Virus record (IMG/VR): IMGVR_UViG_3300032087_006189 | From: a virus | Direction: 5' to 3' (one strand) | Length of the DNA stretch: 64,000 bases | In this document: piece after piece, positions 16,591-63,414 of the stretch | Layout of the letters: the number at the start of each line of letters is the position of its first letter | Position numbering within the stretch: the first letter of the stretch is position 1 | Notes under the pieces: model-generated | What the model was told of the DNA's origin: nothing | The model's input: the letters and a program-made list of their open reading frames with translations, nothing else | Database searches by the model: none | Program-made: the position numbers and the translations under genes

Positions 16591-16624
16591 AAAAAGCCCC
16601 CTCCGGCATCCGCCGGAGGGGGCT
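16591..16624 (-). terminator. Intrinsic terminator after the fibre gene
   Basis: Perfect 13-bp stem agccccctccggc/gccggagggggct with a 4-nt loop, followed by a T-run on the minus strand. Confidence 0.85.
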
Positions 16625-18582: not shown

Positions 18583-18795
18583 TTAGACTTTTCTGATTTG
18601 ATTTTTCAGAGTCTGGTATGTGTTGAAGAACCGGCACTCAGGCGTACTGGGCCAGGTTGACTCCATGCTGTCCAGATCGGAATCTGAGATCTCGAATACC
18701 CAGGATACTCTACGTCCTGATCGCTTTACGGATGCAATCCGGTATCCGTTTGCCACCAGGTATGCGGCAAAGCTCATGTCTTGTGTTTCGTACAT
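18583..18795 (-). CDS. DUF5659-like small protein
   Basis: YETQDMSFAAYLVANGYRI...RVSWVFE pattern. Confidence 0.6.
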   Translation of the reverse strand: MYETQDMSFAAYLVANGYRIASVKRSGRRVSWVFEISDSDLDSMESTWPSTPECRFFNTYQTLKNQIRKV

Positions 18796-19031
18796 TACGT
18801 CAAGGCCGCGGACAGCAGGGGCAGGAACTCGGCAGCAAAGGCCTCGGAGTGCAGTCTTCCCAATTCTATCGTACGGCGTTGGAGTTGTCGAGTGCCGGTC
18901 CTGCCCTCAAGCACTACCAGTAGCAGCTCTTTTTCTCGCAAAAGACGGGCTTCTTCTTTGCGCAAGAGGGCATCGACCTGCGCTCCCAAAGACGCGACCA
19001 TAGAGGCATACGGGCCTGCTGCTTCAGCCAT
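18795..19031 (-). CDS. Hypothetical protein
   Basis: 78-aa ORF coupled on both sides. Confidence 0.5.
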   Translation of the reverse strand: MAEAAGPYASMVASLGAQVDALLRKEEARLLREKELLLVVLEGRTGTRQLQRRTIELGRLHSEAFAAEFLPLLSAALT

Positions 19032-19861
19032 CAGAACGCATCCATGTAGTCTTTGTACTTTTTGGCAATCCGGTTTTTGACCTGAGAAACCTTCGACGGG
19101 CTCCAGCCAAGATTCTTTGCGATCTGACCCATGTTCTCGGTCTTTGGCTTCCCATTCTTGCCAAACAGATATTCGAAGACTGCCTGCTCCTCCAGGGTCA
19201 GGTCATAGGGCAGCATTTCGACGATTTCTCGGTGAACTGAGGAAGTCTCCTCAAATGGATTCACATCGAATCCGCCCTCACCGAGTGTAGGAATCGCAAA
19301 GATGTCGGGGCGCACCTCTTTTGCGAGCCGCTCGACCTTCTTGACGCTGATCTTCATTCGATCTGCGATCTCAATGGAGGTCGGATCTCTATTGAGCTCT
19401 TCGCGCAGGATGTCTTTGGTGCGCTGATACTCGCCGATCTTGTTCGCCTGAGACTCCACGATTCTTGTGAAGTTCTGGTGCTTCTTCACATACCGGTTCA
19501 GGCCACGGAGGTTGTTCGTGACATGAGTGGAAATCACCGCGCCCTTGGCGGGGTCGTACTTGCGCAGAGCCTTCACAGTCAGTGACCGCGCCTCTGCCTC
19601 GACCGTGGGGCGGTACATGCGCGGAGGCGTATGTCGGTTGACCTGAGACGTGATGACCGGATTGAGCGCAGTCAAGAGGGGCTGCAGCTTCTCAGGGTCC
19701 TCATTGGAAGTCTTCCACTGGCGCCACAGATCGATCTCCTTGGCCGCCTTGCCCGTGTACGGGCGAAACTTGCCAGTCTTGTAGTCCTTGGTCCCCCAGG
19801 TTTTCGGAAACTGGTAGGGGTCCTTGGCTGCAATTTTGAGGAGTCGATCCTTGACGGCCAT
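19031..19861 (-). CDS. RNA polymerase sigma factor, sigma70 family, FliA/WhiG/SigF-like
   Basis: Region 2 is KALRKYDPAKGAVISTHV, region 3 is LREELNRDPTSIEIADRMKISVKKVERL, and the region 4 HTH is LTLEEQAVFEYLFG...MGQIAKNLGWSPSKVSQV. Confidence 0.85.
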   Translation of the reverse strand: MAVKDRLLKIAAKDPYQFPKTWGTKDYKTGKFRPYTGKAAKEIDLWRQWKTSNEDPEKLQPLLTALNPVITSQVNRHTPPRMYRPTVEAEARSLTVKALRKYDPAKGAVISTHVTNNLRGLNRYVKKHQNFTRIVESQANKIGEYQRTKDILREELNRDPTSIEIADRMKISVKKVERLAKEVRPDIFAIPTLGEGGFDVNPFEETSSVHREIVEMLPYDLTLEEQAVFEYLFGKNGKPKTENMGQIAKNLGWSPSKVSQVKNRIAKKYKDYMDAF

Positions 19862-19863
19862 GG

Positions 19864-20109
19864 CTACTTCTTCTGCGCGCGGTCCACGAGCTTGCCAGCC
19901 TCTCGAGCAGACATGCCCAGTCGGACATTGCGGCCGTAGTGCTCTTTGTTCGTGTAGAGGCTGCTGAGCTGCTTGTATGCACGCTCACCAAGAACATCCC
20001 GACTCTTGAACAGTTCATCGAGGAGCTGATTCGTGTGTCGAACATTGAGTTTTTCGGCACCCTCAGAGAGCTGGCCATCTACACTGCGCTGAAAGAGCTC
20101 GGACATCAC
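19864..20109 (-). CDS. Hypothetical protein
   Basis: 81-aa coupled ORF. Confidence 0.55.
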   Translation of the reverse strand: MMSELFQRSVDGQLSEGAEKLNVRHTNQLLDELFKSRDVLGERAYKQLSSLYTNKEHYGRNVRLGMSAREAGKLVDRAQKK

Positions 20110-20345
20110 ATTCCCTCGTTTTTGCGGAATCTGCTCATAAACCCGGTCTGCTTGAGCAGCTGCTTTTGCTGGTACTCACGCTGACGGCGTGCCACCTTAC
20201 CCTCCCGGGCATCTTGCAGCAGGTCTTTACCGAGAGCACCAGCAGCAAGTCCGCCAGCCCCGATAAGCACTCCTTGCCCACGAGTAAGGGCAGCAATCTT
20301 GTGCATTTCGTCAAAGCAGGCAGCAAGCATCGCCGAGTGGATCAT
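20106..20345 (-). CDS. Small protein with a FDEMHKIAA leader and a glycine-rich hydrophobic segment
   Basis: MIHSAMLAACFDEMHKIAA followed by GVLIGAGGLAAGALG. Confidence 0.6.
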   Translation of the reverse strand: MIHSAMLAACFDEMHKIAALTRGQGVLIGAGGLAAGALGKDLLQDAREGKVARRQREYQQKQLLKQTGFMSRFRKNEGM

Positions 20346-20346
20346 A

Positions 20347-23300
20347 TCAACCTCGTTTTCCGATTCCGGAGGCTCCGGACAGAGCGACGGAACCCTGGAT
20401 TCGCCTCTTGTATAACTCTACACGATCGGCTCGTTCAAGTCTCGGATCCATCCTATCACCTTCTCCGCCATTCAGGTTGAATGTGGGAGTTCCAGATGAA
20501 GTGAGGCTACTGGACAGATCTATGTCTTTTAGATCAAGGTACTCGAGCTTTCCACCATACTCCGCAGACGAAGAGAAACATACGGCATTCGAGTGGTATC
20601 CACCGTAGTATTTTGGAGCGTCCCCGACAGGGGCCGGAGCAGCAGAGAATGACCTAGTCGTAGTGTCGTAGAAATAGGATTTCGAAGCCAAAACCTCGAG
20701 CTGATTTGCGATCGGCCTTCGAGTGAAGTCGTAGATGTAAGACAGCGTATCCTCAGTGATGCCGCCAGTTACTTGCGCTGCAGATTTCTTGGCGTATCGC
20801 AAAGCCACGACATCTACTGCCTCTTCGACGCTTCGCACGGAATATCTCGTATTGGTCACGAGGTCTGTGATCGCCGCCGTCCCAAAAAACGGACCATAAA
20901 TCTTCCCGGTAATGTTGTTTGCGCTGTAATCATCGGAGATCCAGATCGGCCGAATTGCCTCCTCTACCGGAAGCAGGGCCGATCTTCTTGATCTCTCTGA
21001 AATTACACCAACAAACCGATCTCCCGGAAGAACAGCTGGGATGACCAGGTCGTTGCCCACCATGTAGCCTACAAGGTCCATATAGTCGGCGAACTCAAAC
21101 TCCATGCCCGGCTCGGGAAAGTACTTCTTGATCTGAATCTCAACATCGCCTACATCACCAAGAAGCGTAAAGAAGGCAGGACTCCTAAAGTCTTTTACGA
21201 TGATCAAGACTTCTGAATTTCCGTTTTCCCACGTACCCGATGTGACGGTGCCACCCTGATATTCGACCTCTGGCAGGGTCAGCTCTTTCCGCGCTTCTTG
21301 GTCAACTGCTCGATCACCCAAGTCTCCTGTAAGTACCGATGCAGAGAGCGAGGGCTGAGGATCGGATGTAACTGTGAGCCCGTAAATCAGATCTGAGAAT
21401 GACTGAAAGCCCAAGGTAGCCGCCACGGCGTACCAAAAAAAGGCTTGATCTCCCGTCGCAGTACTGGCGATGTTTGAAGTAATTCCTCCGCCAATAGACA
21501 GGTCAGCATTTCCAGAGGCTTCTACTCTGGTAATAACTGCATCTTGAATTGTCAGGGTGCCGTCACTGCCAATCAGCTCAGAAAATATATCATCCGACTG
21601 GTCTCCAGTACGGTGTGAGCGCACCTGAGACAGACGCACCTGAGTCTGTGCTCCGCCCTGACTGATTGAGTGAGTGACAGACTGAACCATGCCTAGCTTG
21701 AATGATCTCGGAGAAGATGTAGGAGACGAAAGCGCATCCTCCATCGCAATCTCTGAAGATGTCATTGTCGAGTCGATGACCAGAGCGGGGAACCCGGGAA
21801 TGATGTGGGGGCTGATGCTCAGGCTTAGGGATGCGGATCTAGCTGCGTATCGACTCGTAAGAAGACGAAAATGCGCAACCTTTGAGGCATAGGTACCGAA
21901 AGTTTCTCTATCTTCGACTGTAGATGCGTCGGTAACAGGATTCTTGAGGCCGAAGTAGATGGCGTCAGTCATGCGCTCGAACTTCGGGACGATGCCACTG
22001 AATTTCTCGTGGTCGAAGATCAGATTGGATGTGGCCCGCTCCCCCAGTGCGGAAGCAAGGCTGGCCCCAGTCAGCTCCGGCGCAAAGAAGTACCGGTTCA
22101 GGATCGCGCTATCTGATGTCGCAAACTCGAATCCCACATCGAGTTGAAGACGGGAAGCTTCCCGGATCAATTCTCGGCTTGTAGAAAACGACTGGATCAT
22201 GTCAGGGAAGATGACATTGCTCTTTGGCGGCGGACAAAACCACACGTCTGGACGAACGATGTGCGTGTAGAGGGCTTCCCGACTCCCAGATACGCCTGTG
22301 CCTATGATCTCTGAGGCCTTGGTGGTTGTGACGTTGTTCTTTCCGACACCAAAGTCTTTAATTTGGACATGCACCGGGTCCCACCCTAGCCCCATGACTT
22401 CGACAAGCAGCGGGCACGTCGTGCCCCCAAAGAGCTTTTCTTTCCCCGCCCCGAGGTATGCGAGGTTGTGGGCTGCAGCCAACGTCTCTGCTTGTTGGTA
22501 GAAAAGGACATAGTCCTTGGCAATTTGAATGTCCAAGTCGAAGCGAGTCAGGCCGCCCGGGTACTTGTCGCCAGTCAGATGAAAGCGGACTTGGGTTTCA
22601 AAAGCTGCGAGATTGAGGGTAGAAGGATCTACGCGCGTAGTTGTCGCCAACGTGAAAAGGGCTCGGCGCAGGTTTTTGTACCAAGTACCGGTGGTGGTCG
22701 CGTCCTTAATGGGCGTGCCTGGCTTATGAAACTCATAGGGTAGGCCTACGCCCCACTTGGAGGGGTTTCCCTTTGACTCTGTGTCGTCCTTGTAGGAAAA
22801 CACGAAGTCCATCGCAAGCCCCCACTCATGGGCGATTGCCTTGTCATCGGTGCCGGGCTCTCTAAACGCGCTCGACAGATGGACAGTCGCCGGAGAGCTC
22901 AGACCCGTTGCTGCAAATGAGTTGAGGGCCGTGAGGAACGGAATGAGCTGCTCATGGAACTCCGCTTGAATGAAGAACTCTACTTTATCGCTGATCAAGA
23001 ACTCATCGTATTGAGCCCGTTGTTCCTCTGTAAGCTCCCCAATGAGCTGCTTTAGTGACGAAAACTTCGGGATGTCCCGATTCGGCTTACCGGGGCTGTC
23101 TGTGCTGTTGCCGGGGAGGTATCGGGCGCAGGGATTCGGCACCATCTCGTAGAACACATATTCAAACACGATCGAGGTGAGTTGGCGGAAGCTCATGACC
23201 TGGCCTCTGTCAGCCAGCCTCTTTGTCAGCCACTCTGAAAACTGCTTGACCTGAAACACCTGTGAAGCGGTCTCTCCAGAGTCCCCAACAACCGATTCCA

Positions 23301-23931
23301 AAAAGCGGACTCGGCGCTCCTGAACAGACACAAACTGATTCAACCCGTATGAGAGCCCTTGAACCCCGCACAGAATCTCAAGTACCGCAAGCAGTCCTCC
23401 CAGAAGGGTCTGCTTACCTGAGTGCTGTGGCATAGATGGGCTTTTGGTAAGAGCTCTGCGGATTACCTCTTCTGGGTTGTTGGTGATGTTGTCAAACAGC
23501 AGGTTCTGCGCGCCTAAGAAAATAGATGTATCTCGGACAATGGTGTTGCTTTCAGTGTCCTGGCCCCCGATTCGTGCCTGGTAGAGGTAGTTCGTATCGA
23601 GGACATTTGAGAAGTCGAGGCATGTCAAAGTGGCGCTTCTGGAGCCCATTCCTGCCTTGTTGCTCGATACCCCGAACAGCTCTCCGCAAAACAGCAGCTT
23701 GTAGTGGGTGTCCAGTGGGGCCTCTCTCCCACTTCTCCGGAATGCCATGTGGTCCAAGTAGAACAAGTGGACCACTGTGCGCGGGAGAAGTAGGTCCAGA
23801 GAGTCATCCGGCACGATCTCAATGGTTGCTGATGCAGGAGATCCGATCGTCGCCGTCACCGATGCTCCGATCACGGGTACTTGGATCCCCTCAAGAAACA
23901 GCCTGAGATCAAGATAGAAGCCCTGGTTCAC
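20347..23931 (-). CDS. Baseplate hub-like protein with an inserted M15-type zinc peptidase domain (1194 aa)
   Basis: Hub-like N-terminus (LRLFLEGIQVPVIGASV...LLFCGEL...LTCLD) and later GMVQSVTHSISQGG. The insert reads SSAFR...AHEWGLAMDF...WDPVHVQ. Confidence 0.65.
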   Translation of the reverse strand: MNQGFYLDLRLFLEGIQVPVIGASVTATIGSPASATIEIVPDDSLDLLLPRTVVHLFYLDHMAFRRSGREAPLDTHYKLLFCGELFGVSSNKAGMGSRSATLTCLDFSNVLDTNYLYQARIGGQDTESNTIVRDTSIFLGAQNLLFDNITNNPEEVIRRALTKSPSMPQHSGKQTLLGGLLAVLEILCGVQGLSYGLNQFVSVQERRVRFLESVVGDSGETASQVFQVKQFSEWLTKRLADRGQVMSFRQLTSIVFEYVFYEMVPNPCARYLPGNSTDSPGKPNRDIPKFSSLKQLIGELTEEQRAQYDEFLISDKVEFFIQAEFHEQLIPFLTALNSFAATGLSSPATVHLSSAFREPGTDDKAIAHEWGLAMDFVFSYKDDTESKGNPSKWGVGLPYEFHKPGTPIKDATTTGTWYKNLRRALFTLATTTRVDPSTLNLAAFETQVRFHLTGDKYPGGLTRFDLDIQIAKDYVLFYQQAETLAAAHNLAYLGAGKEKLFGGTTCPLLVEVMGLGWDPVHVQIKDFGVGKNNVTTTKASEIIGTGVSGSREALYTHIVRPDVWFCPPPKSNVIFPDMIQSFSTSRELIREASRLQLDVGFEFATSDSAILNRYFFAPELTGASLASALGERATSNLIFDHEKFSGIVPKFERMTDAIYFGLKNPVTDASTVEDRETFGTYASKVAHFRLLTSRYAARSASLSLSISPHIIPGFPALVIDSTMTSSEIAMEDALSSPTSSPRSFKLGMVQSVTHSISQGGAQTQVRLSQVRSHRTGDQSDDIFSELIGSDGTLTIQDAVITRVEASGNADLSIGGGITSNIASTATGDQAFFWYAVAATLGFQSFSDLIYGLTVTSDPQPSLSASVLTGDLGDRAVDQEARKELTLPEVEYQGGTVTSGTWENGNSEVLIIVKDFRSPAFFTLLGDVGDVEIQIKKYFPEPGMEFEFADYMDLVGYMVGNDLVIPAVLPGDRFVGVISERSRRSALLPVEEAIRPIWISDDYSANNITGKIYGPFFGTAAITDLVTNTRYSVRSVEEAVDVVALRYAKKSAAQVTGGITEDTLSYIYDFTRRPIANQLEVLASKSYFYDTTTRSFSAAPAPVGDAPKYYGGYHSNAVCFSSSAEYGGKLEYLDLKDIDLSSSLTSSGTPTFNLNGGEGDRMDPRLERADRVELYKRRIQGSVALSGASGIGKRG

Positions 23932-28800: not shown

Positions 28801-29055
28801 GGCCCCAGCCGCACCACCACCAATTGCGGCAATACTAGGAAAAAACCCGGCGGCAATGCCCGCTCCAGAAGCAAGCATTCCCGCTGCACCCGACATTCCC
28901 GTCGCAAGGCCAAGACCGCCCGTTATCAACCGATTGCCAGCGTACGCCCCACCAGTAGCCTGGGCGTGGCCAGTCGGAGCGTAGCTGAAGGTGGGTGGGT
29001 AGTGCGATGAGCCCATATTGGGCTGCATCGGCATCATTCCGGGCTGCGGATACAT
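25834..29055 (-). CDS. Tape-measure-like protein (~1073 aa)
   Basis: Ala/Gly/Met-rich helical protein with Gly-rich hydrophobic stretches, upstream of the tube-initiator and hub genes. The ATG at 29055 has an AGGTGA SD. Confidence 0.7.
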   Translation of the reverse strand: MYPQPGMMPMQPNMGSSHYPPTFSYAPTGHAQATGGAYAGNRLITGGLGLATGMSGAAGMLASGAGIAAGFFPSIAAIGGGAAGAGGATSLGVLTGATALGTGASLGMASPMALAGGPIGLGLMAAGAGLSIANTGVQNANAVGNMFGNMQFVNASGDPTTGRGFSQNDLMTLQRGVRAIDANNPFVSMSDALRATERFTEMGMHQGVQDAEKLAKKVTELGKTMHQMARSLGTSMEEAGQIFKDMKGSGFYSAQDVMGNTANMTLMRGFGMSSQQFAQMQRTGAGMTRGAQMSGRAGAGMITAKTAEFMNAIRTGQMSAEEMMDMTGASTPLEAAQMMAQQTLAGTMGGLSGALGTGMLLAAGATDKSGRFTGEIDAGILRRMAQGNLSRNELMDIGGGKRGSRIGQASFTARRQDIMESMLESDQGQEALFGMVRSITEEMFGEGAGEDQDLFQLVAETQFNMDRRAVRKLQELKSGRGQRLSALKQEILASQRAAELRENATLSGAAQRIGGTISDAFNPLTDAASSYYRGVIESSQDVERFMLGKGSTRVTIGTTQEALDEAVMSAMMGRAGSGRTMGIGEAARRGMIGQALPSVSDDMVSRVRGTSAANAVFAAGSGKSAADADISGALRQIMFQADPSSRLKHVAAKSALSIVSPLGAASATNIGIDEERAAAIALKSAAPEDRERTEQLLAEYFKNKKDAGLSVDSTRSDQQDLSRLFGTRGATDFTMDFSSPFAAFGSIEKIGSVGQNVAFGGVSGALFSAARFAVDSNLEEAFDRIEQGGESSALLQKYEKSQKEIDHIIAGNDPDAAAKKLNKRFGLKISAQDVRDLEVLMQHKTGRNASERRTSGVDAGLLKKIGTAASNLVNKEAQRRVDEQLSSLGMAALRESGLERQFDSGKAETNFSALQRSIQKLAQEGFVATGADDVESQMLGFGVEAATAVSRAARDGLTMSELTDMGLSQDQVRKLVKEQGGSIAGSSIKVDAKKLGSAIGALKAADLGLDTDKRSLLDGGQTEQQIMANLLNQTDQNVRKTSEQVQLTAETLNKTGISYVAGFIPDPEKKEDG

Positions 29056-29081
29056 CAAATATCACCTGTTTGGCGGCATAA
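29056..29081 (+). promoter_or_regulatory. Conserved phage promoter (YAAA-N14-SGTCATAA class)
   Basis: caaa-N14-cggcataa upstream of SD AGGAGG and ATG 29108. Confidence 0.6.
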
Positions 29082-29107
29082 TACCACTAACGGCACAAGG
29101 AGGTATC

Positions 29108-29520: not shown

Positions 29521-29718
29521 TCACGTTAGCCTGCACGGACCCATTGGATCGGGCTTGAGGTTCTCAGAGAACTTCCCAGTTTCTTTAGCCACAATAAATG
29601 ACTTGATGATCGCGCGCTCGAACTTCGCCAGCGGCTCCGCACCCTGGCCGCGGAACCACTTCTCGAAGGCATCAATCTGGGCATCCGCGCGAGCCAAAAT
29701 TTCCTTTCTTTCGGTCAT
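29521..29718 (-). CDS. Small hypothetical protein
   Basis: MTERKEILARADAQIDAFEKWF...; GGAG SD; fills the intergenic gap. Confidence 0.45.
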   Translation of the reverse strand: MTERKEILARADAQIDAFEKWFRGQGAEPLAKFERAIIKSFIVAKETGKFSENLKPDPMGPCRLT

Positions 29719-29720
29719 AA
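29695..29720 (+). promoter_or_regulatory. Conserved phage promoter for the ligase gene
   Basis: caaa-N14-ggtcataa. Confidence 0.6.
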
Positions 29721-29737
29721 CAACTCCGGAGGACAAC

Positions 29738-31443: not shown

Positions 31444-31709
31444 CAGTCAATTTCCTCGCTAAGAATGGTACGGACTTCCTTCTCCATCTCGGCAACGCCG
31501 TCCTCCAGTTCCTCTACAATCTCCTCGATGAGATCGGTCGAAACTGGTGCGCCTTCGCACGAGATCTGGGCCAAAGGCTCAGGAACCCCATCACGAGGCA
31601 AGAACCGCGTGCGGAGAATCTGAGCAAGGGTAGACTGCACTGCAGCCCGCCCCTTCAGCTCCTTCACCTCTGTAATCACGGACCCCACAGTCTTCGATGC
31701 TGCTGGCAT
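31443..31709 (-). CDS. Hypothetical protein
   Basis: ORF-track frame 31443-31787; start uncertain (MPAASK at 31709 fits an upstream -10-like site). Confidence 0.55.
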   Translation of the reverse strand: MPAASKTVGSVITEVKELKGRAAVQSTLAQILRTRFLPRDGVPEPLAQISCEGAPVSTDLIEEIVEELEDGVAEMEKEVRTILSEEID

Positions 31710-31849
31710 GAAAAAACTCCTTTTTTCTGCCATAACACTATCGTGAAGAAACTGAGAAGTCTCCGGAGAAATCGAGGAAGTACTCACCGCACCCAGGGCG
31801 TACTGGACTGTCCGGGAAAGCTGGGTGTGCTTCTTTTGTTAAGTAATGC

Positions 31850-33963: not shown

Positions 33964-34469
33964 TTCTTTTCCCAGTCGAGGGACACGGAGTCCTTGGTAA
34001 TGGGGCCACCGGATGCCCAAGTATAGCAAGTACGGGCAGAATGGCACTTGAAGTGATGCATGTGGCAATAGCCGAGGTATCCGTCCTCTTGGACCATGCC
34101 GGGCATGCAGTCCTGCATTCGCGGAGAGATGTCGAAAGCCACGCAGTTCGAGCACTTCGACTTCTTGGCCACGGCAGGAGTCGTCTTCCAATGCGCGGCC
34201 AAGCGCCTCCAGTACCCTTGATCGGATAGATTCAGGGGTCCGTATTGGATGTGGTCAGCTTGGATCGACTTGTTGCGGTTCTTCGTATTGACCTTGAGAT
34301 CGCGGGTCGCAAGCGGGCACGCTGCAGCCTCTTTCGATCCACCGAGGTGGTAGCCACAGTTCGAGCACTTCTCCGCACCAGCATGGTTCATGTGCCCGCA
34401 CTTGGGACACTTGATCTTGCCGGCCGAGAGCTTGATCAGCTCAAGTGTGAATCCTGGGAGAAGTCTCAT
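33960..34469 (-). CDS. K-x-A-linked Cys-rich protein: zinc ribbon plus a Cys/His metal-binding domain
   Basis: Leader FTLELIKLSA; CPKC..CSNC; linker SKEAAA; then CSNCVAF...GYCHMHHFKC...TCYTW. Confidence 0.7.
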   Translation of the reverse strand: MRLLPGFTLELIKLSAGKIKCPKCGHMNHAGAEKCSNCGYHLGGSKEAAACPLATRDLKVNTKNRNKSIQADHIQYGPLNLSDQGYWRRLAAHWKTTPAVAKKSKCSNCVAFDISPRMQDCMPGMVQEDGYLGYCHMHHFKCHSARTCYTWASGGPITKDSVSLDWEKK

Positions 34470-37153
34470 TTTTTGTCCGTAAACTTCGTGCGATTGGTCA
34501 GGCGACTGACTGCGCGCAGATTAGCAGATCCATTGCCGCCGCCCTTGGAAATCGGCGTCTTGTGATCAGCTTCTCGAGGGTCGCCCTTCTTCAGGCCCAG
34601 TTTTCTGCGTGCCTGATTTCGCATGCTGCGGTTGGCTACTTGCTCTGGCTTTGCGTGGTACTGAGCGTACTCTCGGGCATAGTCTCTTTTGCGCTGACCG
34701 TATGGGGCTGCCGCGTATTTTGCGATTCCCTTTTCTATGAGCTCTCCTGACTCACTAAATCGCGCCGGCCGAACGATCTCCTTCATTTTTGCGCCGACGC
34801 CTGCTCCGTCCTCAAAGGGATCAAAGAGCTTTCTCAGGTCATTGGGCTCTAAGGTCTTTGCATCGATACCTCCCACTACGTTGCGGAAGTCGTGAGCACT
34901 CGGTATCGCGTGAATCTCTCCATTTACTCGGCGCATACCAACTGGACGATCTCCAAAGGCCCTTTGAATCTCTCTGTGATCGAGCTGTTGCCACGGATTA
35001 CTGGGATCGGCGTAGAACTTTTTATTCTGCACAAATCCAGCGTAGTTTGGGTTAGCTGCGTACCGCGCATTCCACTGCTTGAGGGCCTCATCTGTAGAGG
35101 GATCGTACGCTGACGGCGGCGGAGCCGCCGCACGAGAAGCTGCCGGAGGCGGTGCTGACGGCGGCGGAGCCGCCGCACGAGAAGCTGCCGGAGGCGGTGC
35201 TGACGGCGGCGGAGCCGCCGCACGCGCAGTAGAGCGTGCAGCCTTGGGAGCGGAGCCTGCAGCCGAAGTAGCAGCGTCAGCTGCTCCGGTTGCAGCACGG
35301 CGAGTTGCTTTGGGGGCTGCGGATGGGGTCAGCTTCTTGAGGAGCTTTGGTGCTTGGCTGATTCCCGCACCAAGAGTTCCTCCCAGCAAGGCTCCCTTTA
35401 GTCCTCCGTAGTCTGCACCGGAATCGTACCCCGCAGCTCCGCCGAGGATTGCTCCGATGCCCGCGCCAGCTGCGAGTGATGCGACCTTGACCCGCTCGCC
35501 GGGAGGCTTCATGTTCGGGCCCAGCACGGTCTTCACGACATGCTTTGATCCGATGTCGCCAATAACGACGTAGCCTTTTCCGCTTTTGAGGGGGACATGG
35601 TAGGTCTGCCCCTTGCGAAGATTCATCATCGGAATGCGCGCTCGAATCTTGGCGACTTCATAGGTCGCGCCTGGAGCTCGCTCTGCGATGCGGTCCTCTA
35701 CATGACCGGCTTCCTTTTCGATATCACTGGCCTGTTGGAATACTGCTCTCATTTGATTTGCCAGCTCCGTCTTTTCATCGGCTCGATCTTGAATCCACTG
35801 CTCAGTGGACTTGCCAGGATCCATGCCGAGAAATCCCTTGGGAAGAGAAGAATAGTACCGCTGCACATGAACCTTACGCTCTGCAGGCGGAAGATGGGCG
35901 TGACTCTGGTAGCGAACCCCGCGTCCGATCACCTGGTCGATCTTTGAGTTGTTCCAGTGGGGCTCAAGAACCTGAACCATCTTGGTGCCCTTGAGGTCCA
36001 GCCCCTCAGTTCCCGAACTCGAGACAAGCAGGACAGGGACCTTGCCCGAGTTGTACTCGTCTACCATCTGCGCCTTTTGCTTTGCGTTCAACTTCCCGGT
36101 CAGGGTGTTGAACTTGATCTTCTTCTTTTTTAGCGCGCGCTCGTAGGGCTTGAGCCCCGCCTCGATGTAGTTCGAGTAGACAACTCCGCGGAATCGGCGA
36201 TCTTTCTTCTTTGCCTCGTGCAGTCTGCGGGCTGCTTCCTGAATCTTGGGAGTGTGGAGCTCCTCCTCCTCTTCCGTCATAGTGTCGACATACGGCTTCG
36301 GAGAAAGCGACGCTTGCCTGCCCGCAGTCGTAAACGCATTGAGCATTCGCGACTCTTGCTTTGAGGGCGGCAACCCTGCGCGGATCTTGCGTCGCACATG
36401 CCACGGAGCGGCGCCCATCACCGCATTGTAGACTTCCTTCTGCTTTCCCGACATTGGGACATTGATGCGCTCGTCAATCTGCTCTGGGAAGTCCTCTGGG
36501 TTTGCCTCAGAATGGACATCGATCCTTCCCACGAGGGCATCGCGCAGCGCAGTGGCGTTCTGAAGGTCTTTGCGGATTCCGGGTTGAACACCTACCAACC
36601 GGTTCAACAAGCCAGGAGAAACCTTTGTCTCCCGGATAAACTTGCGCCGAAAAGACATGGTGTCGGCAGGAAGTACGGTCTCCCCTGCAGCGATGTTTGC
36701 AAGAGGCGCAATATCAAAGGGCTGGTTGTACAGCGCGGTTCCAGTCAAGAGTAGCCGCTTACCGGCCTGTTCGGACTCAGGCCTCAGCGTTCTTGTTGTC
36801 AAAGACGGGTTCCGAAGCCTGTGTGCTTCGTCGAGAACTAGAAAAGAGCCGGGCTCGATCGCTGCTCGCTCTTCCTTGGTTTTGCGGCGAACTGCTTTCT
36901 CGTAGGAGCTGATTCTGGCTTCGACCTCTCCCTTGACGTGCTTTTTGATCTCCTTTTCATAGTTCTTCGTTAGCGATGCCGGAGTGATGATCTCCATCGG
37001 AGCACCACTTCTGACACCCGCAGCAATAGAGGTCAGCGTCTTTCCAGCCCCTACGCGGTGAGCAACAATGACGCCGTCGCTGTTCTCCAGCTTGCGGAGG
37101 ACCCGCTCTTGATGCGGCTTGAGCTTGGCGGTGACTTTGGGAGATTTAGACAT
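34466..37153 (-). CDS. SNF2-like SF2 helicase fused through K-x-A linkers to small domains and a C-terminal HNH endonuclease
   Basis: Helicase motifs LKPHQ, GAGKT, LDEAH, LLTGT, GTEGLDL, EPHWN and QVIGRGVR. HNH is EADHKTPISKGGGNGSANLRAVSRLTNR. The start is probably MSKSPK at 37153. Confidence 0.85.
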   Translation of the reverse strand: MSKSPKVTAKLKPHQERVLRKLENSDGVIVAHRVGAGKTLTSIAAGVRSGAPMEIITPASLTKNYEKEIKKHVKGEVEARISSYEKAVRRKTKEERAAIEPGSFLVLDEAHRLRNPSLTTRTLRPESEQAGKRLLLTGTALYNQPFDIAPLANIAAGETVLPADTMSFRRKFIRETKVSPGLLNRLVGVQPGIRKDLQNATALRDALVGRIDVHSEANPEDFPEQIDERINVPMSGKQKEVYNAVMGAAPWHVRRKIRAGLPPSKQESRMLNAFTTAGRQASLSPKPYVDTMTEEEEELHTPKIQEAARRLHEAKKKDRRFRGVVYSNYIEAGLKPYERALKKKKIKFNTLTGKLNAKQKAQMVDEYNSGKVPVLLVSSSGTEGLDLKGTKMVQVLEPHWNNSKIDQVIGRGVRYQSHAHLPPAERKVHVQRYYSSLPKGFLGMDPGKSTEQWIQDRADEKTELANQMRAVFQQASDIEKEAGHVEDRIAERAPGATYEVAKIRARIPMMNLRKGQTYHVPLKSGKGYVVIGDIGSKHVVKTVLGPNMKPPGERVKVASLAAGAGIGAILGGAAGYDSGADYGGLKGALLGGTLGAGISQAPKLLKKLTPSAAPKATRRAATGAADAATSAAGSAPKAARSTARAAAPPPSAPPPAASRAAAPPPSAPPPAASRAAAPPPSAYDPSTDEALKQWNARYAANPNYAGFVQNKKFYADPSNPWQQLDHREIQRAFGDRPVGMRRVNGEIHAIPSAHDFRNVVGGIDAKTLEPNDLRKLFDPFEDGAGVGAKMKEIVRPARFSESGELIEKGIAKYAAAPYGQRKRDYAREYAQYHAKPEQVANRSMRNQARRKLGLKKGDPREADHKTPISKGGGNGSANLRAVSRLTNRTKFTDKK
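35109..35224. repeat. 45-bp tandem repeat (~2.6 copies) encoding an RAAAPPPSAPPPAAS linker
   Basis: gctgacggcggcggagccgccgcacgagaagctgccggaggcggt repeats exactly at 35109 and 35154 and partially at 35199. Confidence 0.9.
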
Positions 37154-39068
37154 CCAAGCCCCACAAAACCATCGCCTCTTTTTTGGCATCTTCGTAGGTA
37201 CGGGACTTGGCTGACGTCTCGCTTACGTCAGCCAGATCCGTCTTCCCTTTGAGCCTGCCGATAGTGGGGCGCTGTCCGAGAGCCTTGCCCAGGTGCTTCA
37301 CATGCGCGTTTCTATCCGACACAAGGAAGTCAGCGGGGGCCGTCATTGACCATCTGCCGCCCCGAGTGTGAGTAGCGTGACCTTGCAGGGCATACGCGGC
37401 CCCAATCAGGTTGCTGCAGGTCCACTTGTCCGTCTTTTTGATCTCCTTGCCATGGTCCAGCTTCTTGTCGAAGTACTTCGGCATGAAGATCGAGAAGCCC
37501 TTTTTGGCCAAGAACTTGTGAGACTCGTAAGGGGCTCCCACCTGCGTCTTGGCAAATGTTGCAGCCGCGCGACGAGCCTTGGTGCTGACTTTTGGACGAA
37601 CGACCACTGCCCCGTCCAAATCCCGTAGAGATCTCTTGAGAGATCGCCTTACGACGCCCCCCTGCAAAGCCTCGACTACCTGGCCCTTTCCGACGTAGAT
37701 GGCAGAGTGGGTGTAGGATCCTTGCGCAGCGGGAGAAGCCTTGCGGAAGAACTGTTCCTTCATCCGCTTGTGAAGAGGGGCACCTGAGTCCTTCGAATAC
37801 TGCTCGGGAGCCATAGCAGTGAGGATCACGTCTCCTACCTGCATGCCCTTTGAACTTGCTTCTCTGGCGGCCATCGCCTCTTTTTTGATGTCCTCGTAAG
37901 TACGGATTGATCGGAAGTTTGGAGACTTCTCCTCAATCTCTTTCCGGTACTTCAGATCATCGAAGTGAGTAGTCAGTCCCATCTTGAGATCTGGAAGCAT
38001 GGGCGTGCCTCGCTCTCGCGATCGCTTGCCCACCCGAAACATGCGAGTCGCCATTGGGGTGTCCAGGTACAGGACATCATCCGCCTGTGCCAACAGCTTA
38101 GGATACCTCAGTGCCCCTCTTGGGTATCCCTCCACAAGGACCCGCTTACCCTTTGCGCGCATCTTCAGTGCGAGAGCTTCTCTGCGGTTGCGAATCTTCT
38201 CGCGCTCGGCTTTGGGCGGCTTGACATACTGTCCGTTGACGACCCCTCCCGTGTCTGTCCCGATCAGGACATCAAACTCTCCGCTGTCGACCAGCTTCTT
38301 GGCCATCGTGCTTTTGCCCGCGCCGGCTCCACCAGTGATGAAAGTCAGTCGCGGAGCTTTGTCGGATGCCTCTTTTTTGAGCTCTCTTTGCGCCAGAATC
38401 TCAATGCCGGGGTATTTAGCGGCTACAGCTTTACGGACCTGTGATTTCTCCCCCGGAGTACCGTGCTGGGCTACTCGAGCTAGGGCATTGCGAGCATGAG
38501 ATCGGTCATGGATCGGATAACGCCTACCGGGCAGAGCGAAGTTGCCTTCGGAGATCTGATTACGTCCTCTGGTTGTTAGCTCTGCCGCTTCTTTCTTGAG
38601 CTCTCCGTAGGAGGCAGTCTTGTTCATCTGCTTGAACTGTCGAATGTGTTTGCAGTCCACGACTTCTCCCGGTTTCGCGACCGAACGCTTGTAGCGCCAG
38701 TCGTTGCAGGTGCATCCCAGCCGGTCTTTGCCGCGCAGCTTGACGATGCTGTAACTCTTGGACCCGCTCTGGACGGTGCCGACCTTCTTTCCGGTCTGCA
38801 GGCGATTCATGTTGTCCGCGTGCATGACCAGCTTGGCATCAGAGCGAGAGTCACTTCCCAGCTGCTTCACAAAGGACTTGCGCGAAGCATTGTTGAGGAA
38901 CTGGTCCCAGTCCTTCTTCTTTGCGGTGTGAAAGCTCTCGACCCGCGCACCGGCACGCTTCTTTTCTCTCGACTGAAAGAAGTTCTGAAGTCGGCCTCTG
39001 ATTCCAGAAACAAAAGAGGATGGCGAAAACTCGCCATCCTTTTCAAACTCTGGATAGAAGTGGTACAT
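37146..39068 (-). CDS. Four-module polyprotein: SWIM zinc finger, DUF6582-like domain, P-loop kinase, and permuted NlpC/P60 (YiiX/C92) amidase
   Basis: CTCNDW...CKH; NFALPGRRYPIHDRSHARNALARV; ITGGAGAGKST...VEGYPR; GDVIL...THSAIYVG...VGAPY...CSNLI. Modules are separated by KKEA[A/S/M]. Confidence 0.8.
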   Translation of the reverse strand: MYHFYPEFEKDGEFSPSSFVSGIRGRLQNFFQSREKKRAGARVESFHTAKKKDWDQFLNNASRKSFVKQLGSDSRSDAKLVMHADNMNRLQTGKKVGTVQSGSKSYSIVKLRGKDRLGCTCNDWRYKRSVAKPGEVVDCKHIRQFKQMNKTASYGELKKEAAELTTRGRNQISEGNFALPGRRYPIHDRSHARNALARVAQHGTPGEKSQVRKAVAAKYPGIEILAQRELKKEASDKAPRLTFITGGAGAGKSTMAKKLVDSGEFDVLIGTDTGGVVNGQYVKPPKAEREKIRNRREALALKMRAKGKRVLVEGYPRGALRYPKLLAQADDVLYLDTPMATRMFRVGKRSRERGTPMLPDLKMGLTTHFDDLKYRKEIEEKSPNFRSIRTYEDIKKEAMAAREASSKGMQVGDVILTAMAPEQYSKDSGAPLHKRMKEQFFRKASPAAQGSYTHSAIYVGKGQVVEALQGGVVRRSLKRSLRDLDGAVVVRPKVSTKARRAAATFAKTQVGAPYESHKFLAKKGFSIFMPKYFDKKLDHGKEIKKTDKWTCSNLIGAAYALQGHATHTRGGRWSMTAPADFLVSDRNAHVKHLGKALGQRPTIGRLKGKTDLADVSETSAKSRTYEDAKKEAMVLWGLDV

Positions 39069-46625: not shown

Positions 46626-46830
46626 TCAGATTGAAGTTCGACTTTTTGCGAAGGTCGACAAAAATGGCGACGAGTACTTTATTGGTAGCTCGGACGCACC
46701 TGCGCAGATCAACCTTCAAGACGCGACTTTTGTGTTCTTCCTCCCTCCCGAGGGAGAAACGATTGGCGCTCTGAAGATTCGACCCAGAACCCCTCGAAGG
46801 TTCGGTCAAGATGGTGACGGGCCGTCTTAG
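46618..46830 (+). CDS. Hypothetical protein
   Basis: 70 aa; its stop codon falls inside the 5' end of tRNA-Thr. Confidence 0.55.
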   Translation: MADQIEVRLFAKVDKNGDEYFIGSSDAPAQINLQDATFVFFLPPEGETIGALKIRPRTPRRFGQDGDGPS

Positions 46831-46896
46831 CTCAGTTGGTAGAGCATCGGTTTTGTAAACCGACGGTCGACGGTTCAAGTCCGTCAGGCGGCTCCA
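46821..46896 (+). tRNA. trnT: tRNA-Thr(UGU)
   Basis: Cloverleaf; anticodon loop tt-tgt-aa; GGTTCAA T-loop; CCA encoded. Confidence 0.92.
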
Positions 46897-46981
46897 GGAA
46901 GCGTGGCCGAGTGGTTTAAGGCACCGGTCTTGAAAACCGGCGAAGGGAAACCTTCCGTGAGTTCGAATCTCACCGCTTCCG
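46897..46981 (+). tRNA. trnS: tRNA-Ser(UGA)
   Basis: Long variable arm; anticodon loop ct-tga-aa; GTTCGAATC. Confidence 0.92.
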
Positions 46982-46988
46982 CCCTCCA

Positions 46989-47063
46989 TGGGGCGTGGTG
47001 TAATTGGCAACACATCGGTTTTTGGCACCGACGTTCGGGGTTCGAGTCCCTGCGCCCCAGCCA
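46989..47063 (+). tRNA. trnQ: tRNA-Gln(UUG)
   Basis: U1-A72 acceptor stem tggggcg/cgcccca; anticodon ttg; CCA encoded. Confidence 0.9.
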
Positions 47064-47141
47064 AGAGATACGCCTTGCTCTTGGCCTACTGCTCCATGCT
47101 ACCCCCCTTCAAACCTATGGGGCAGTAGGCCAAGGCTTTGC

Positions 47142-47215
47142 AGGCCCGTAGCTCAGTCGGTCAGAGCACCCGGCTCATAACCGGAGGGTCGTCGGTTCGA
47201 GCCCGACCGGGCCTA
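47142..47215 (+). tRNA. tRNA with a CAU anticodon (Ile2-like or elongator Met)
   Basis: Anticodon arm cggctcataaccg resembles Ile2; lacks initiator features. Confidence 0.85.
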
Positions 47216-47231
47216 CTCTTTTGGAGAGAGA

Positions 47232-47378
47232 ATGTACCAAGTAACTGTAGGAAATAAGGTCTTCTTTTCAGAAGACTACGATTGGAGCCTGCCGAAGACG
47301 CTGGCAGCAGCACGAGAATGGGCGGCAAAGAACGCGCCCCAGCAAGAGGTCAAGGTTGGCTTGATCTCCTTCTTGTAG
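47232..47378 (+). CDS. Small hypothetical protein (48 aa) inside the tRNA cluster
   Basis: GGAG SD; MYQVTVGNKVFFSEDYDWSLPKTLAAAREWAAKNAP.... Confidence 0.5.
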   Translation: MYQVTVGNKVFFSEDYDWSLPKTLAAAREWAAKNAPQQEVKVGLISFL

Positions 47379-47384
47379 TGACCT

Positions 47385-47461
47385 GCCTCGATAGCTCAGT
47401 TGGATAGAGCACCGGCCTTCTAAGCCGATGGTCCCAGGTTCGAATCCTGGTCGAGGCGCCA
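47385..47461 (+). tRNA. trnR: tRNA-Arg(UCU)
   Basis: Cloverleaf; anticodon loop ct-tct-aa; CCA encoded. Confidence 0.92.
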
Positions 47462-47492
47462 CTACTGAATACTTCACCAATAGAGAGATACG

Positions 47493-48917: not shown

Positions 48918-48948
48918 CCCGGTAATACCTCGATCCTATCACGCGGCT

Positions 48949-48974
48949 CAATCAAGGGCACTTTTCCGTCATAA
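48949..48974 (+). promoter_or_regulatory. Conserved phage promoter
   Basis: caat-N14-cgtcataa. Confidence 0.65.
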
Positions 48975-48998
48975 TATTTGTAGAGAAAGGAGTCTCTG

Positions 48999-51658: not shown

Positions 51659-52302
51659 TCAAGTTTGACGATCATTCCTGGGCCGCGCTGATTGCTATTG
51701 CTAGCAGCAGAAACGCGTATCTGTCCGGGAATGTCGTCAAGCTGATTGATGACGAAGAAAACCCGCTGTACCGCGAGTATCTCGACACAGCGATCAATCG
51801 AGACAAGGACAAGCAGAAGCAGCGTCTTGATGTGACCAAGAAGGCCCAGAAAGAAAAGAAGAAACTAGAAGAGGCGCAACAACGAAACGACCTGTTGATG
51901 AAGCGTCTTGAAGACTCCCTTGCGAGCACAAACCTCGCCAAAGAAGAGGCAGAGCAAGCGAAGCAGGTTTCAGACAAGCTTCGTGCAGAGGCAGAACGTG
52001 CGAGGGCTGCGGCAGAAAGGGCAAAGGATGAGGTTGAGCGAGACCTTGATGTCCTACAGCGCCGCACGCAGTCTCAGCTCATGCACAACATCGTCAACTC
52101 TGCGATCCAAGTGGTCATCGGAGTGGGCGGAATCACCAGCGCGCTTTACCTTTATGTATTGGTATTTGGGGGACCAGAAACTCAGGTGTCGATGCTTGGG
52201 AACACCTGGTCGAACATGTTCGGAATCCTCCTCACAAACAGCTTTTCGATTATTGGCACCGTTATGGGCGTGAAGTACGCAACCGAGAAACAGGGCGAAT
52301 AA
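51655..52302 (+). CDS. Coiled-coil protein with two C-terminal transmembrane helices
   Basis: Coupled to the response regulator; long heptad region followed by two hydrophobic segments. Confidence 0.7.
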   Translation: MIKFDDHSWAALIAIASSRNAYLSGNVVKLIDDEENPLYREYLDTAINRDKDKQKQRLDVTKKAQKEKKKLEEAQQRNDLLMKRLEDSLASTNLAKEEAEQAKQVSDKLRAEAERARAAAERAKDEVERDLDVLQRRTQSQLMHNIVNSAIQVVIGVGGITSALYLYVLVFGGPETQVSMLGNTWSNMFGILLTNSFSIIGTVMGVKYATEKQGE

Positions 52303-52318
52303 GCGTCATAATATACAT

Positions 52319-54866: not shown

Positions 54867-54871
54867 GCCTC

Positions 54872-54897
54872 CAAAAAGTGGGCGTTTGGGGTCATAA
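54872..54897 (+). promoter_or_regulatory. Conserved phage promoter
   Basis: caaa-N14-ggtcataa. Confidence 0.65.
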
Positions 54898-54927
54898 GCA
54901 GTGTAACCATAGACAGGAGGTATATCT

Positions 54928-55831: not shown

Positions 55832-55952
55832 CCGCTGCTGGTCCTGCGGCGGAAACATGGTGGAACGAGAATCTCCGACCATCATCGTGGTCGCCTGTGA
55901 CCGCAAGGGCTGTCCTGCGGTCTACACGAAGAAGAAGAAGCGTAAATCGTAA
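55812..55952 (+). CDS. Small zinc-ribbon protein
   Basis: CWSC...CDRKGC with a basic tail. Confidence 0.5.
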   Translation: MDEKIVDRCWSCGGNMVERESPTIIVVACDRKGCPAVYTKKKKRKS

Positions 55953-55976
55953 AATACACGCGTTTTGCGTCATAAT
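55950..55976 (+). promoter_or_regulatory. Conserved phage promoter driving the ncRNA
   Basis: taaa-N14-cgtcataat, with no SD/ATG downstream. Confidence 0.7.
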
Positions 55977-56819: not shown

Positions 56820-57098
56820 ATGGCCCCAGAAATTGAGTGGTGCGGCGAGATTGATGTTCCTGATGACATCCTGGCAATCGCCAACAAGTACAAAAGCTCG
56901 GTCCTGTTTATGGGGGCGCTGTCCTATCACGGACACCCAAAGTACGCAGAAGAGCTGTGGGAACAGGCTTCGGAAAGCGCGCGTGACCGCATGCTTCGCG
57001 CGGGAGTCCTGAGGGAGTTCCTCAAGACTGGAGACGAGATGGAGAGGACGTACTCAAATGCGTTCTTCATGACGCAGGGCATTGACCTACGGCTCTAA
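56820..57098 (+). CDS. Hypothetical protein
   Basis: AGGAG SD before ATG 56820. Confidence 0.6.
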   Translation: MAPEIEWCGEIDVPDDILAIANKYKSSVLFMGALSYHGHPKYAEELWEQASESARDRMLRAGVLREFLKTGDEMERTYSNAFFMTQGIDLRL

Positions 57099-57122
57099 AA
57101 AACAGCCAATAAACCGCCATAA
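57096..57122 (+). promoter_or_regulatory. Conserved phage promoter
   Basis: taaa-N15-cgccataa. Confidence 0.6.
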
Positions 57123-57159
57123 TATAAATACCCAAGAGAGACATAGTAAGGAGGTCATC

Positions 57160-58890: not shown

Positions 58891-59148
58891 AGGTCTTCCA
58901 GGAGGAGTGAATGGACGATTGGTACCCATTGGTCGTGATTGTATACCTTCACGACATCCCCAGCAATCCAAAGGACATCCGCAGAGAGCGGACCATGGGG
59001 ATCTTCTACATTCAGGAAATCGACGACTTTACAGAAGTTGCTGAAATCCTATCACCAGACATGGTTGAGCGCTTTGGCGGCAATCCAAATATCAAGAAGG
59101 TGACTGTATCTCGAAACAGGATGGTTCCCTTCTGGAGGGGCGACGCTC

Positions 59149-59174
59149 TAAAAGTAACGCAAAATCCGTCATAA
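59149..59174 (+). promoter_or_regulatory. Conserved phage promoter
   Basis: taaa-N14-cgtcataa followed by tatagatagcc. Confidence 0.7.
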
Positions 59175-59210
59175 TATAGATAGCCAAGGACAATACTAAG
59201 GAGGTGCCTC

Positions 59211-59603: not shown

Positions 59604-59644
59604 GGGGGCCCTTCGGGGCCCCCGGCCCTTCGGGGCCAGTTTTT
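59604..59644 (+). terminator. Tandem C(UUCG)G hairpins with a T-run
   Basis: gggggccc-ttcg-gggccccc and ggccc-ttcg-gggcc followed by agttttt. Confidence 0.75.
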
Positions 59645-59668
59645 AAGTGTTGGTTTTTTGCGTCATAA
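59643..59668 (+). promoter_or_regulatory. Conserved phage promoter
   Basis: ttaa-N14-cgtcataa followed by tatagatagcc. Confidence 0.7.
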
Positions 59669-59693
59669 TATAGATAGCCACAAGGAGGTACTC

Positions 59694-61762: not shown

Positions 61763-61817
61763 GCCGGCCCTCTTTGGCGCCATACTAACATGTGGGAAGA
61801 GATTCGTACTCATTTGT

Positions 61818-61843
61818 TAATTTAGGGAGTATTTCTGTCATAA
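61818..61843 (+). promoter_or_regulatory. Conserved phage promoter
   Basis: taat-N14-tgtcataa followed by tatagatagcc. Confidence 0.7.
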
Positions 61844-61877
61844 TATAGATAGCCAAGAACAACAGTTGAGGTGTTTC

Positions 61878-62337: not shown

Positions 62338-62393
62338 AAAGCAAGTCCAGGGGGACCGCTGCTTTTTAACTTATACATTTTTGGGTCATAATA
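62338..62393 (+). repeat. Terminator-plus-promoter module, copy 1
   Basis: aaagcaagtcca..gggacc.ctgctttttaact.atacatttttgggtcataata. Confidence 0.8.
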
Positions 62394-62831: not shown

Positions 62832-62889
62832 AAAGCAAGTCCACTGGGGACCTCTGCTTTTTAACTCATACATTTTTTGGGTCATAATA
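62832..62889 (+). repeat. Terminator-plus-promoter module, copy 2
   Basis: Near-identical to 62338-62393. Confidence 0.8.
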
Positions 62890-63336: not shown

Positions 63337-63357
63337 TGGGTGGGGCATTTCTTTAGC

Positions 63358-63383
63358 TAAAATATCCCAGTTTTCCGTCATAA
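63358..63383 (+). promoter_or_regulatory. Conserved phage promoter
   Basis: taaa-N14-cgtcataa. Confidence 0.7.
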
Positions 63384-63414
63384 GACCTTTGCAACCATAC
63401 AAAGGAGGTTTGCA

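Follow-up and report, generated by a model that had tools for sequence, protein, structure and literature searches.

RNA polymerases (RNAPs) that travel in the virus particle are known from phage N4, from the phiKZ/AR9-type jumbo phages and from crAss-like phages. In all of these systems the polymerase is encoded among the late virion genes, is carried in the particle and has its own class of early promoters, and none of them uses a sigma-70-family factor. According to reviews and a comparative survey, jumbo phages that encode RNAPs have no sigma factors and those that encode sigma factors have no RNAPs (PMC7824862; PMC13282480). Here we describe an uncultured phage of about 155 kb in which genes for both proteins co-occur. 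It is represented by a stretch of 64,000 nucleotides from IMG/VR record IMGVR_UViG_3300032087_006189 (hereafter the window, to which all coordinates refer unless a contig is named), in which the open reading frame (ORF) 19031–19861 on the minus strand encodes a sigma-70-family factor. Our preferred reading, held with middling confidence, is that this sigma is a subunit of a phage-encoded, probably virion-delivered RNAP holoenzyme that reads promoters containing GTCATAA.

A tblastn search against cultured phages returned distant relatives only, the best being Salmonella phage Arash (OQ632216.1). Its tail module is homologous and syntenic: Gp6 resembles a 554-aa protein of the present phage, Gp8 the N-terminus of the hub-like protein and Gp13 a giant Baseplate_J protein, while Gp10 is the sigma. 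Gp10 and the sigmas of Vibrio phages D69, D148 and D181 share 31–36% identity with the present one over σ2–σ3 and occupy the same place in the tail module, and all these phages, like the one described here, have a β/β′ RNAP adjoining the portal gene and a homologous SNF2 helicase. They also differ from it. The Arash RNAP is split into one protein with β and the N-terminal half of β′ and another with the C-terminal half of β′, whereas the present phage has one 2117-aa chain. The second Arash sigma (Gp196) has no homologue here, and the Arash and D69 sigmas, unlike the present one, have no N-terminal leader. The promoter-like motifs of Arash, TTTACAC-N5-TTATACC and TTAAACTA, are unlike that of the present phage and are therefore not transferable; the former precedes the portal/RNAP and β′-C genes and the latter several structural genes (positions in L008, which covers Arash 120–165 kb, include 8051, 17624, 19400; 5499, 32554, 33784). 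The Arash virion proteins were tabulated without analysis of a virion holoenzyme (PMC10585845), and beyond that table we came across no packaged sigma-70-family factor in the literature searched.

The sigma factor and its operon

The 276-aa product of the ORF opens with MAVKDRLLKIAA. Its region 3 is matched by Pfam PF04539 (Sigma70_r3) at 1.6e-10 (41.4 bits against a cut-off of 25.3), and the whole product by PHROG 351 ("RNA polymerase sigma factor") at 1e-14. The helix-turn-helix (HTH) of σ4 reaches 17.8 bits with PF04545, under the cut-off of 24.1, but PDB alignments and a structural model span the region. SigA chains in the PDB can be aligned from residue ∼48 through the C-terminus; on the strength of this alignment and the model we also count σ2 (regions 1.2–2.4) as present, though Pfam gives no match for region 2. 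An AlphaFold model built on 24 orthologues (mean predicted local distance difference test score, pLDDT, 78.8) contains σ2 (residues 37–128), σ3 (136–182), a disordered 3.2 linker (186–203) and σ4 (208–275), preceded by a low-confidence helix (residues 2–12, pLDDT ∼58) and a small hairpin. The σ2 helices have pLDDT values of 80–93. Sigma chains were recovered as fold matches at E∼1e-7, with Bacillus subtilis SigD at the top, followed by many SigA and RpoS chains.

An earlier reading of the sequence (the original prediction) had called this gene FliA/WhiG-like. Both SigD as top fold match and FliA_WhiG (TIGR02479) as top NCBIfam model agree with such a likeness, and, as in FliA/WhiG (σ28), the protein has three domains and no region 1.1. 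Yet the TIGR02479 score of 41.9 bits is far under the cut-off of 189.6 and level with that of RpoD_Cterm (40.2). Membership of the subfamily was therefore rejected, and we refer to a three-domain, group-3-like sigma. The protein has 48 close homologues, and a profile search identified 521 representatives (sequence clusters) at E≤1e-30. The fused long forms among the homologues contain no recognisable additional Pfam domain except one KilA-N.

On the minus strand, the sigma gene is preceded by genes for a 1194-aa hub-like protein, a 79-aa and an 81-aa protein, and followed by genes for a 78-aa, a 70-aa DUF5659-like and a 630-aa fibre-like protein. Its ATG lies 2 nt past the preceding stop codon and the start of the 78-aa gene overlaps its own stop via ATGA. 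The gene is translationally coupled within a tail/baseplate operon, and both gene order and the 2-nt spacing bear out the earlier statement that it lies downstream of the hub in a closely spaced minus-strand run. A scan for σ70-type promoters around the sigma gene gave no excess over shuffles. For the hub, 554-aa and 1073-aa proteins no Pfam or PHROG match was obtained and tblastn against cultured phages gave weak Arash matches only; the companion genes of the sigma have no detectable similarity to Arash Gp9 or Gp11.

The phage polymerase and the plus-strand promoters

The same contig encodes a 2117-aa single-chain β-β′ RNAP (domains Rpb2_6, Rpb2_7 and Rpb1_2/3/5). Left of the window the minus-strand tail operon runs on with giant proteins. 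Further left lies a plus-strand replication operon (DEAD helicase, UDG, DnaB, primase, family A DNA polymerase, RecA-like protein, RusA), and beyond it minus-strand head genes, one of which encodes a protein homologous to the Arash portal (32% identity, 1e-87). The RNAP gene begins 30.8 kb left of the window and is found on the virion strand immediately downstream of the portal gene. The polymerase thus stands among the late virion genes, as in the known virion RNAPs, and directly follows the portal also in the related genome G001 and in Arash.

The sigma family and the polymerase go together. PF00562 was detected in Arash, in Vibrio phage D69 and in all but one of the other records with this sigma family (9 of 10 altogether). 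Fused RNAPs of 2074–2166 aa are encoded in seven of the eight IMG/VR records that carry such a sigma, while Arash and D69 have the split form, and the single record with a sigma and no RNAP is a fragment with an estimated completeness of 35%. Because of this co-occurrence the phage enzyme, and not the host core, is the most likely partner, and judged by gene content the sigma would most likely serve the β-β′ RNAP of the phage.

In the 815-nt gap between portal and polymerase (L029:2304–3117; window −30847 to −30034) there are a divergent GTCATAA site abutting the polymerase start and small plus-strand ORFs. The SNF2 helicase of the window may work with the polymerase, as its homologue Gp217 adjoins the β′ gene in Arash and is abundant in the virion; a RapA-like role has been considered (PMC7824862).

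GTCATAA occurs 11 times in the window, every time on the plus strand, against 3.3 expected. It belongs to a bipartite consensus, AAA-N15-GTCATAAT, with a T-rich spacer and mostly followed by a strong ribosome-binding site and an ATG. With a weight matrix run over 97 kb (the window plus a leftward walk along a contig with an identical sigma, made by exact-protein look-ups), 18 sites were found on the plus strand and none on the minus strand, or 22 and none at a lax threshold, which confirms the shared plus-strand promoter motif of the original prediction. One GTCATAA site heads the DNA replication operon left of the window, and the plus strand also holds many small gene cassettes. A strand-exclusive motif that heads replication and accessory genes would represent a separate promoter class for early genes. 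The contrast first noted between a sigma gene of late type and an early-type plus strand also held, since the sigma is encoded among virion genes and the matching promoters serve the opposite strand only.

The promoters resemble those of σ28 (TAAA-N15-GCCGATAA) in having a TAAA-like −35 element, an ATAA-containing −10 element and similar spacing. This resemblance, which had also been pointed out earlier, covers the geometry, where spacing agrees, and the ATAA core, and does not extend to the full −10 element (GTCATAAT instead of GCCGATAA). In related phages the motif again lies mostly opposite the sigma gene, with 20 sites on the opposite strand and 3 on the sigma strand in G001 (sigma 72% identical) and 10 and 0 in G004 (46% identical). 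G007, with a sigma of 32% identity and 61% GC, has the variant GCAAwAA, ∼15 nt, GGnATAAGAA, with 11 sites opposite and 3 on the sigma strand. The motif is hence kept in phages of 56–58% GC and its architecture reappears at 61% GC. That the architecture is kept and the sequence changed where the sigma has diverged most fits, but does not prove, recognition by the phage sigma.

According to the original prediction, the sigma is packaged and injected, binds the host core RNAP and redirects it to early promoters. An ordinary three-domain sigma with σ2 and σ4 could serve a bacterial core, and the promoter geometry is akin to that of bacterial σ28. Nevertheless, the phage has its own fused RNAP, and the presence of a β-β′ RNAP in nearly all records with this sigma family argues against a host partner. 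The sigma and the RNAP subunits of Arash virions are moreover equal in spectra per residue (see below), and a promoter maintained across the GC range given above fits phage-encoded recognition and a phage-encoded polymerase. Redirection of the host core is therefore not supported, and we consider it highly unlikely.

The sigma might instead be a conventional late factor for the minus-strand virion operons, its own included, with the GTCATAA promoters being read by a host holoenzyme that contains either host σ28 or an unusual primary sigma. The classical targets of phage sigmas are late genes, and this one is co-transcribed with such genes. However, no conserved motif was found upstream of the minus-strand operons, and the sole strongly conserved bipartite motif of the alternative-sigma type is on the other strand and shifts in sequence with the most divergent sigma. 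A late-gene role of this kind seems very improbable. No second sigma was seen in the relatives with PF04542, which gave no match, or with PF04539, which matched the known sigma only. Weak region-4 matches were rejected as a second sigma, since they belong to an excisionase/MerR-type HTH protein on the early strand. This protein of ∼226 aa, encoded within the head module (L032 ∼6965–7648(+); G001 46965–47648), is weakly matched in each of the five relatives and makes a candidate for a late-gene regulator.

Several other features of the promoter-bearing strand were observed. CCTTCGGG, which on the plus strand reads as a C-UUCG-G tetraloop, is present 16 times on the plus and twice on the minus strand (1.9 expected) between 29.5 and 63.3 kb, in GC-rich hairpins that resemble terminators of plus-strand cassettes (e.g., 59617–59634, 57657 and 56200–56237). 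A 5-mer Shine-Dalgarno core was found for 10 of 13 promoter-proximal plus-strand genes versus 8 of 42 minus-strand genes. The plus strand also carries a cluster of five tRNA genes (46821–47461: Thr-tgt, Ser-tga, Gln-ttg, Met-cat and Arg-tct) and, at 49965–51658, genes for a 421-aa protein with kinase-type PHROG matches and a 143-aa protein that starts like a response-regulator receiver. The features in the window are listed in Table 1.

Table 1. Features of the sigma locus and promoter-like sites in the window.
Feature	Position	Strand	Basis or remark
Sigma-70-family factor, 276 aa	19031..19861	-	Pfam, PHROG, PDB alignment, model, homologues
N-terminal leader of the sigma, residues 1–12, short helix ending K-I-A-A	19826..19861	-	Model and family alignment
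Sigma residues 13–36: conserved KDPYQFP segment, then variable-length linker before the core	19754..19825	-	Alignment; linkers of P0026, P0027 and P0042 vary or carry inserts
Sigma core (σ2, σ3, 3.2 linker, σ4)	19037..19753	-	Alignment and model
1194-aa hub-like protein, upstream of the sigma	20347..23931	-	N-terminus weakly like Arash Gp8 (virion cell-wall hydrolase), 29% identity, 2e-4
79-aa protein: leader F-D-E-M-x-K-I-A-A, Gly-rich hydrophobic segment, basic tail	20106..20345	-	Leader kept in L006 orthologue
81-aa conserved companion gene	19864..20109	-	Conservation
78-aa gene overlapping the sigma stop (ATGA)	18795..19031	-	ORF
70-aa DUF5659-like protein	18583..18795	-	Pfam 8.9e-5, just below cut-off; conserved in L003
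Strong intrinsic terminator past the fibre gene, the first that follows the sigma	16595..16624	-	13-bp stem and T run
SNF2 helicase, homologue of Arash Gp217	34466..37189	-	38% identity, 3e-97
Promoter-like site, GGCATAA variant	29055..29082	+	Motif/weight matrix
Promoter-like site, precedes ligase gene	29694..29721	+	Motif/weight matrix
Promoter-like site, GCCATAA variant	31709..31736	+	Motif/weight matrix
Promoter-like site	48948..48975	+	Motif/weight matrix
Promoter-like site	52285..52312	+	Motif/weight matrix
Promoter-like site	54871..54898	+	Motif/weight matrix
Promoter-like site	55949..55976	+	Motif/weight matrix
Promoter-like site, GCCATAA variant	57096..57123	+	Motif/weight matrix
Promoter-like site	59148..59175	+	Motif/weight matrix
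Promoter-like site	59642..59669	+	Motif/weight matrix
Promoter-like site	61817..61844	+	Motif/weight matrix
Promoter-like site	62365..62392	+	Motif/weight matrix
Promoter-like site	62861..62888	+	Motif/weight matrix
Promoter-like site	63357..63384	+	Motif/weight matrix

The N-terminal leader

The capsid-targeting sequence of phage T4 (on IPI–III and Alt, cut by gp21) is a short N-terminal helix on otherwise unrelated proteins, and the short motif at its end is common in head-assembly proteins, too. The present phage has comparable leaders, and in the related G001 their motif recurs in head-module proteins. The leader motif is K-x-A-[AS] instead of the L/I-x-E of T4, the leader of the sigma is a divergent version, and loading and cutting are putative here. 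In the minus-strand proteins of the window (15,368 residues) K[IL]AA occurs six times, four of them inside the first 16 residues, and the bearers of these four are the sigma, the adjacent 79-aa protein and two proteins encoded at 57.7–61.8 kb. Beside the portal there are additional leader proteins, as there are in G001 and the distant L016. As would be expected for capsid targeting, a similar N-terminal leader is found on at least six unrelated proteins here, and those other than the sigma share aromatic-x-x-E-[LM]-x-K-[IL]-A-A.

The close orthologues of the sigma conserve [LIV]-R-x-R-L-x-K-[ILV]-A-x-K-D-P. Distant orthologues keep a motif of the K-x-A-A type amid unrelated flanks (K-E-A-A, K-R-A-A or K-T-A-A), which in P0027 comes after an inserted Gly-rich domain of 80 aa and in P0042 before a Pro-rich linker of 50 aa. 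Among 76 full-length diverse representatives, 38 have K.A[ASGM] within the first 35 residues, compared with 4.9 when the N-terminus of each representative was shuffled (maximum 14 in 300 shuffles), and the per-residue rate of the motif at the N-terminus is 8-fold that in the sigma core. The commonest form in the family, W-[VIL]-L-[DE]-K-[LI]-[AS]-A-K-K, is much like the leaders of the other cargo candidates. The K-x-A-A tag that had been proposed for the sigma, and that was to be looked for in orthologues, is therefore part of a conserved, non-random leader, but the exact K-x-A-A is not invariant and the looser K-x-A-[ASGM] is carried by half of the representatives.

The motif is also enriched outside the leaders. 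The virion strand of G001 has 51 copies of K.A[AS] where 25.7 would be expected (∼2-fold), and the other strand has 10 where 9.8 would be. Two head-module proteins of G001 have seven copies each, with <1 expected, and its capsid-protein homologue has K-T-A-A at residue 23. Such a combination of leader and motif is what a T4-like system of targeting leaders and head-protease sites would produce, and the leader is a probable loading and/or pro-sequence tag.

In two of the leader proteins, the 79-aa protein by the hub and a 352-aa protein by the portal (L029:5169–6227(-)), a Gly-rich hydrophobic segment follows the leader, and the sigma orthologue P0027 has a comparable Gly-rich segment between its leader and the K-T-A-A junction. 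Between the 79-aa protein and the domain inserted in P0027 the similarity is weak and of low complexity, and a relationship was rejected.

Probable delivery in the particle

Virions of Arash prepared by sucrose gradient and pelleting have been analysed by liquid chromatography-mass spectrometry (PMC10585845). The sigma Gp10 was detected in them with 24 unique peptides, 467 spectra and 100% coverage. The RNAP proteins Gp206 (128 unique peptides; 3516 spectra, the highest number for any virion protein) and Gp216 (40; 1210), the SNF2 helicase Gp217 (38; 1148), the portal (32; 877) and the major capsid protein (30; 1333) were detected as well, and the second sigma, Gp196, is missing from the table (PMC10585845). 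Using the protein lengths in the Arash record we calculated 2.0 spectra per residue for Gp10, 2.3 for Gp206 and 2.0 for Gp216, with 2.4 for Gp217, 1.5 for the portal and 4.3 for the major capsid protein. Although spectral counts are rough, the values for the sigma and the RNAP are those that a stoichiometric holoenzyme would give. By analogy with Arash, we infer that the sigma may be packaged in the present clade too. The original interpretation of a packaged sigma hence gains from the late-gene position, the conserved leader and an Arash sigma present in virions at RNAP-like abundance, and is not supported as to the host core as partner.

A number of observations weigh against virion delivery. 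The Arash virion list comprises 116 of 272 proteins, among them ribonucleotide reductases and a dNMP kinase, and its authors themselves raise the carry-over of abundant cytoplasmic proteins (PMC10585845). The leader of the present sigma is divergent, with R where the others have E and without the aromatic residue. The fourth residue of the tag varies between A, M and S in close orthologues, with E or I among the nearest relatives, where the tag reads K-L-A-E or K-L-A-I; K-I-A-M is likewise found in a closest relative. Arash and D69 have leaderless sigmas, as has about half of the family, and a leader can therefore not be a general requirement for packaging in this family. Finally, no convincing minus-strand promoter class was found by eye, from strand-biased k-mers or in the upstream gaps of four genomes, and enriched minus-strand words were rejected as promoters because they were codon-level words or hairpin loops. 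Neither such a class nor a second sigma was found, and if host RNAP were to read the late genes from the start, packaging would be unnecessary.

These points lead to an explanation without packaging. After infection, host RNAP would transcribe the polymerase and sigma genes, if not the whole minus strand. The holoenzyme made in this way would then activate the GTCATAA genes of the plus strand, which would form a middle class, and the N-terminal extension would have a regulatory function, bind the polymerase or be a pro-sequence that plays no part in packaging. Since the minus strand has no GTCATAA promoters, another enzyme must read it at some stage, and both the leaderless half of the family, with Arash Gp10, and the very inclusive Arash protein list are in line with this explanation. 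It does not readily account for a polymerase gene directly after the portal among head genes or for a sigma gene amid baseplate genes with no promoter-sized gap. Nor does it explain why the RNAP tops the virion spectra of Arash and why, of two sigmas, the one encoded in the tail operon is detected and Gp196 is not. The replication genes would, in addition, come on after the virion genes. We regard this explanation as unlikely.

In the preferred reading, that of a virion-delivered holoenzyme, the gene would encode the promoter-specificity subunit of the phage's own bacterial-type single-chain β-β′ RNAP. Sigma and polymerase would both be produced late, together with the virion proteins, enter the particle and reach the next cell along with the DNA. 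There the holoenzyme would read the AAA-N15-GTCATAAT promoters, all of them on the opposite strand, which would drive the replication operon, the ligase gene and small cassettes by the dozen. The leader, a short helix at the N-terminus with K-x-A-A at its end, would act as a head-loading and/or pro-sequence tag as on other cargo proteins of the phage, and would probably be cut by the head-maturation protease after K-x-A.

In Bacillus, pro-sigmaE and pro-sigmaK are made with a pro-sequence at the N-terminus, and its removal is tied to a step in morphogenesis. The Bacillus pro-sigmas are cut by membrane proteases of the sporulating cell, whereas the protease proposed here is the head protease of the phage. 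The leader might likewise both load the sigma into the prohead and keep it inactive, with the K-x-A cut being made only inside the capsid, so that active holoenzyme would exist only in particles. We put this forward tentatively and consider it rather doubtful. If true, the early promoters would be inactive in the late phase of infection but start firing as soon as the next host is entered, and this would be a case of morphogenesis-coupled sigma activation in a virus as well as the first virion RNAP to use a sigma-70-family factor.

The clade in question is large, with its 521 sigma sequence clusters, and unites a streamlined single-chain polymerase of bacterial type, a canonical three-domain sigma and a simple promoter that resembles that of σ28. 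Cultured relatives, such as Arash and Vibrio phage D69, make the system open to direct tests. Should sigma and polymerase indeed travel in the particle, they would make up a compact, self-contained and orthogonal transcription system, a new kind of virion transcription machine and a new means by which phages become independent of host RNAP.

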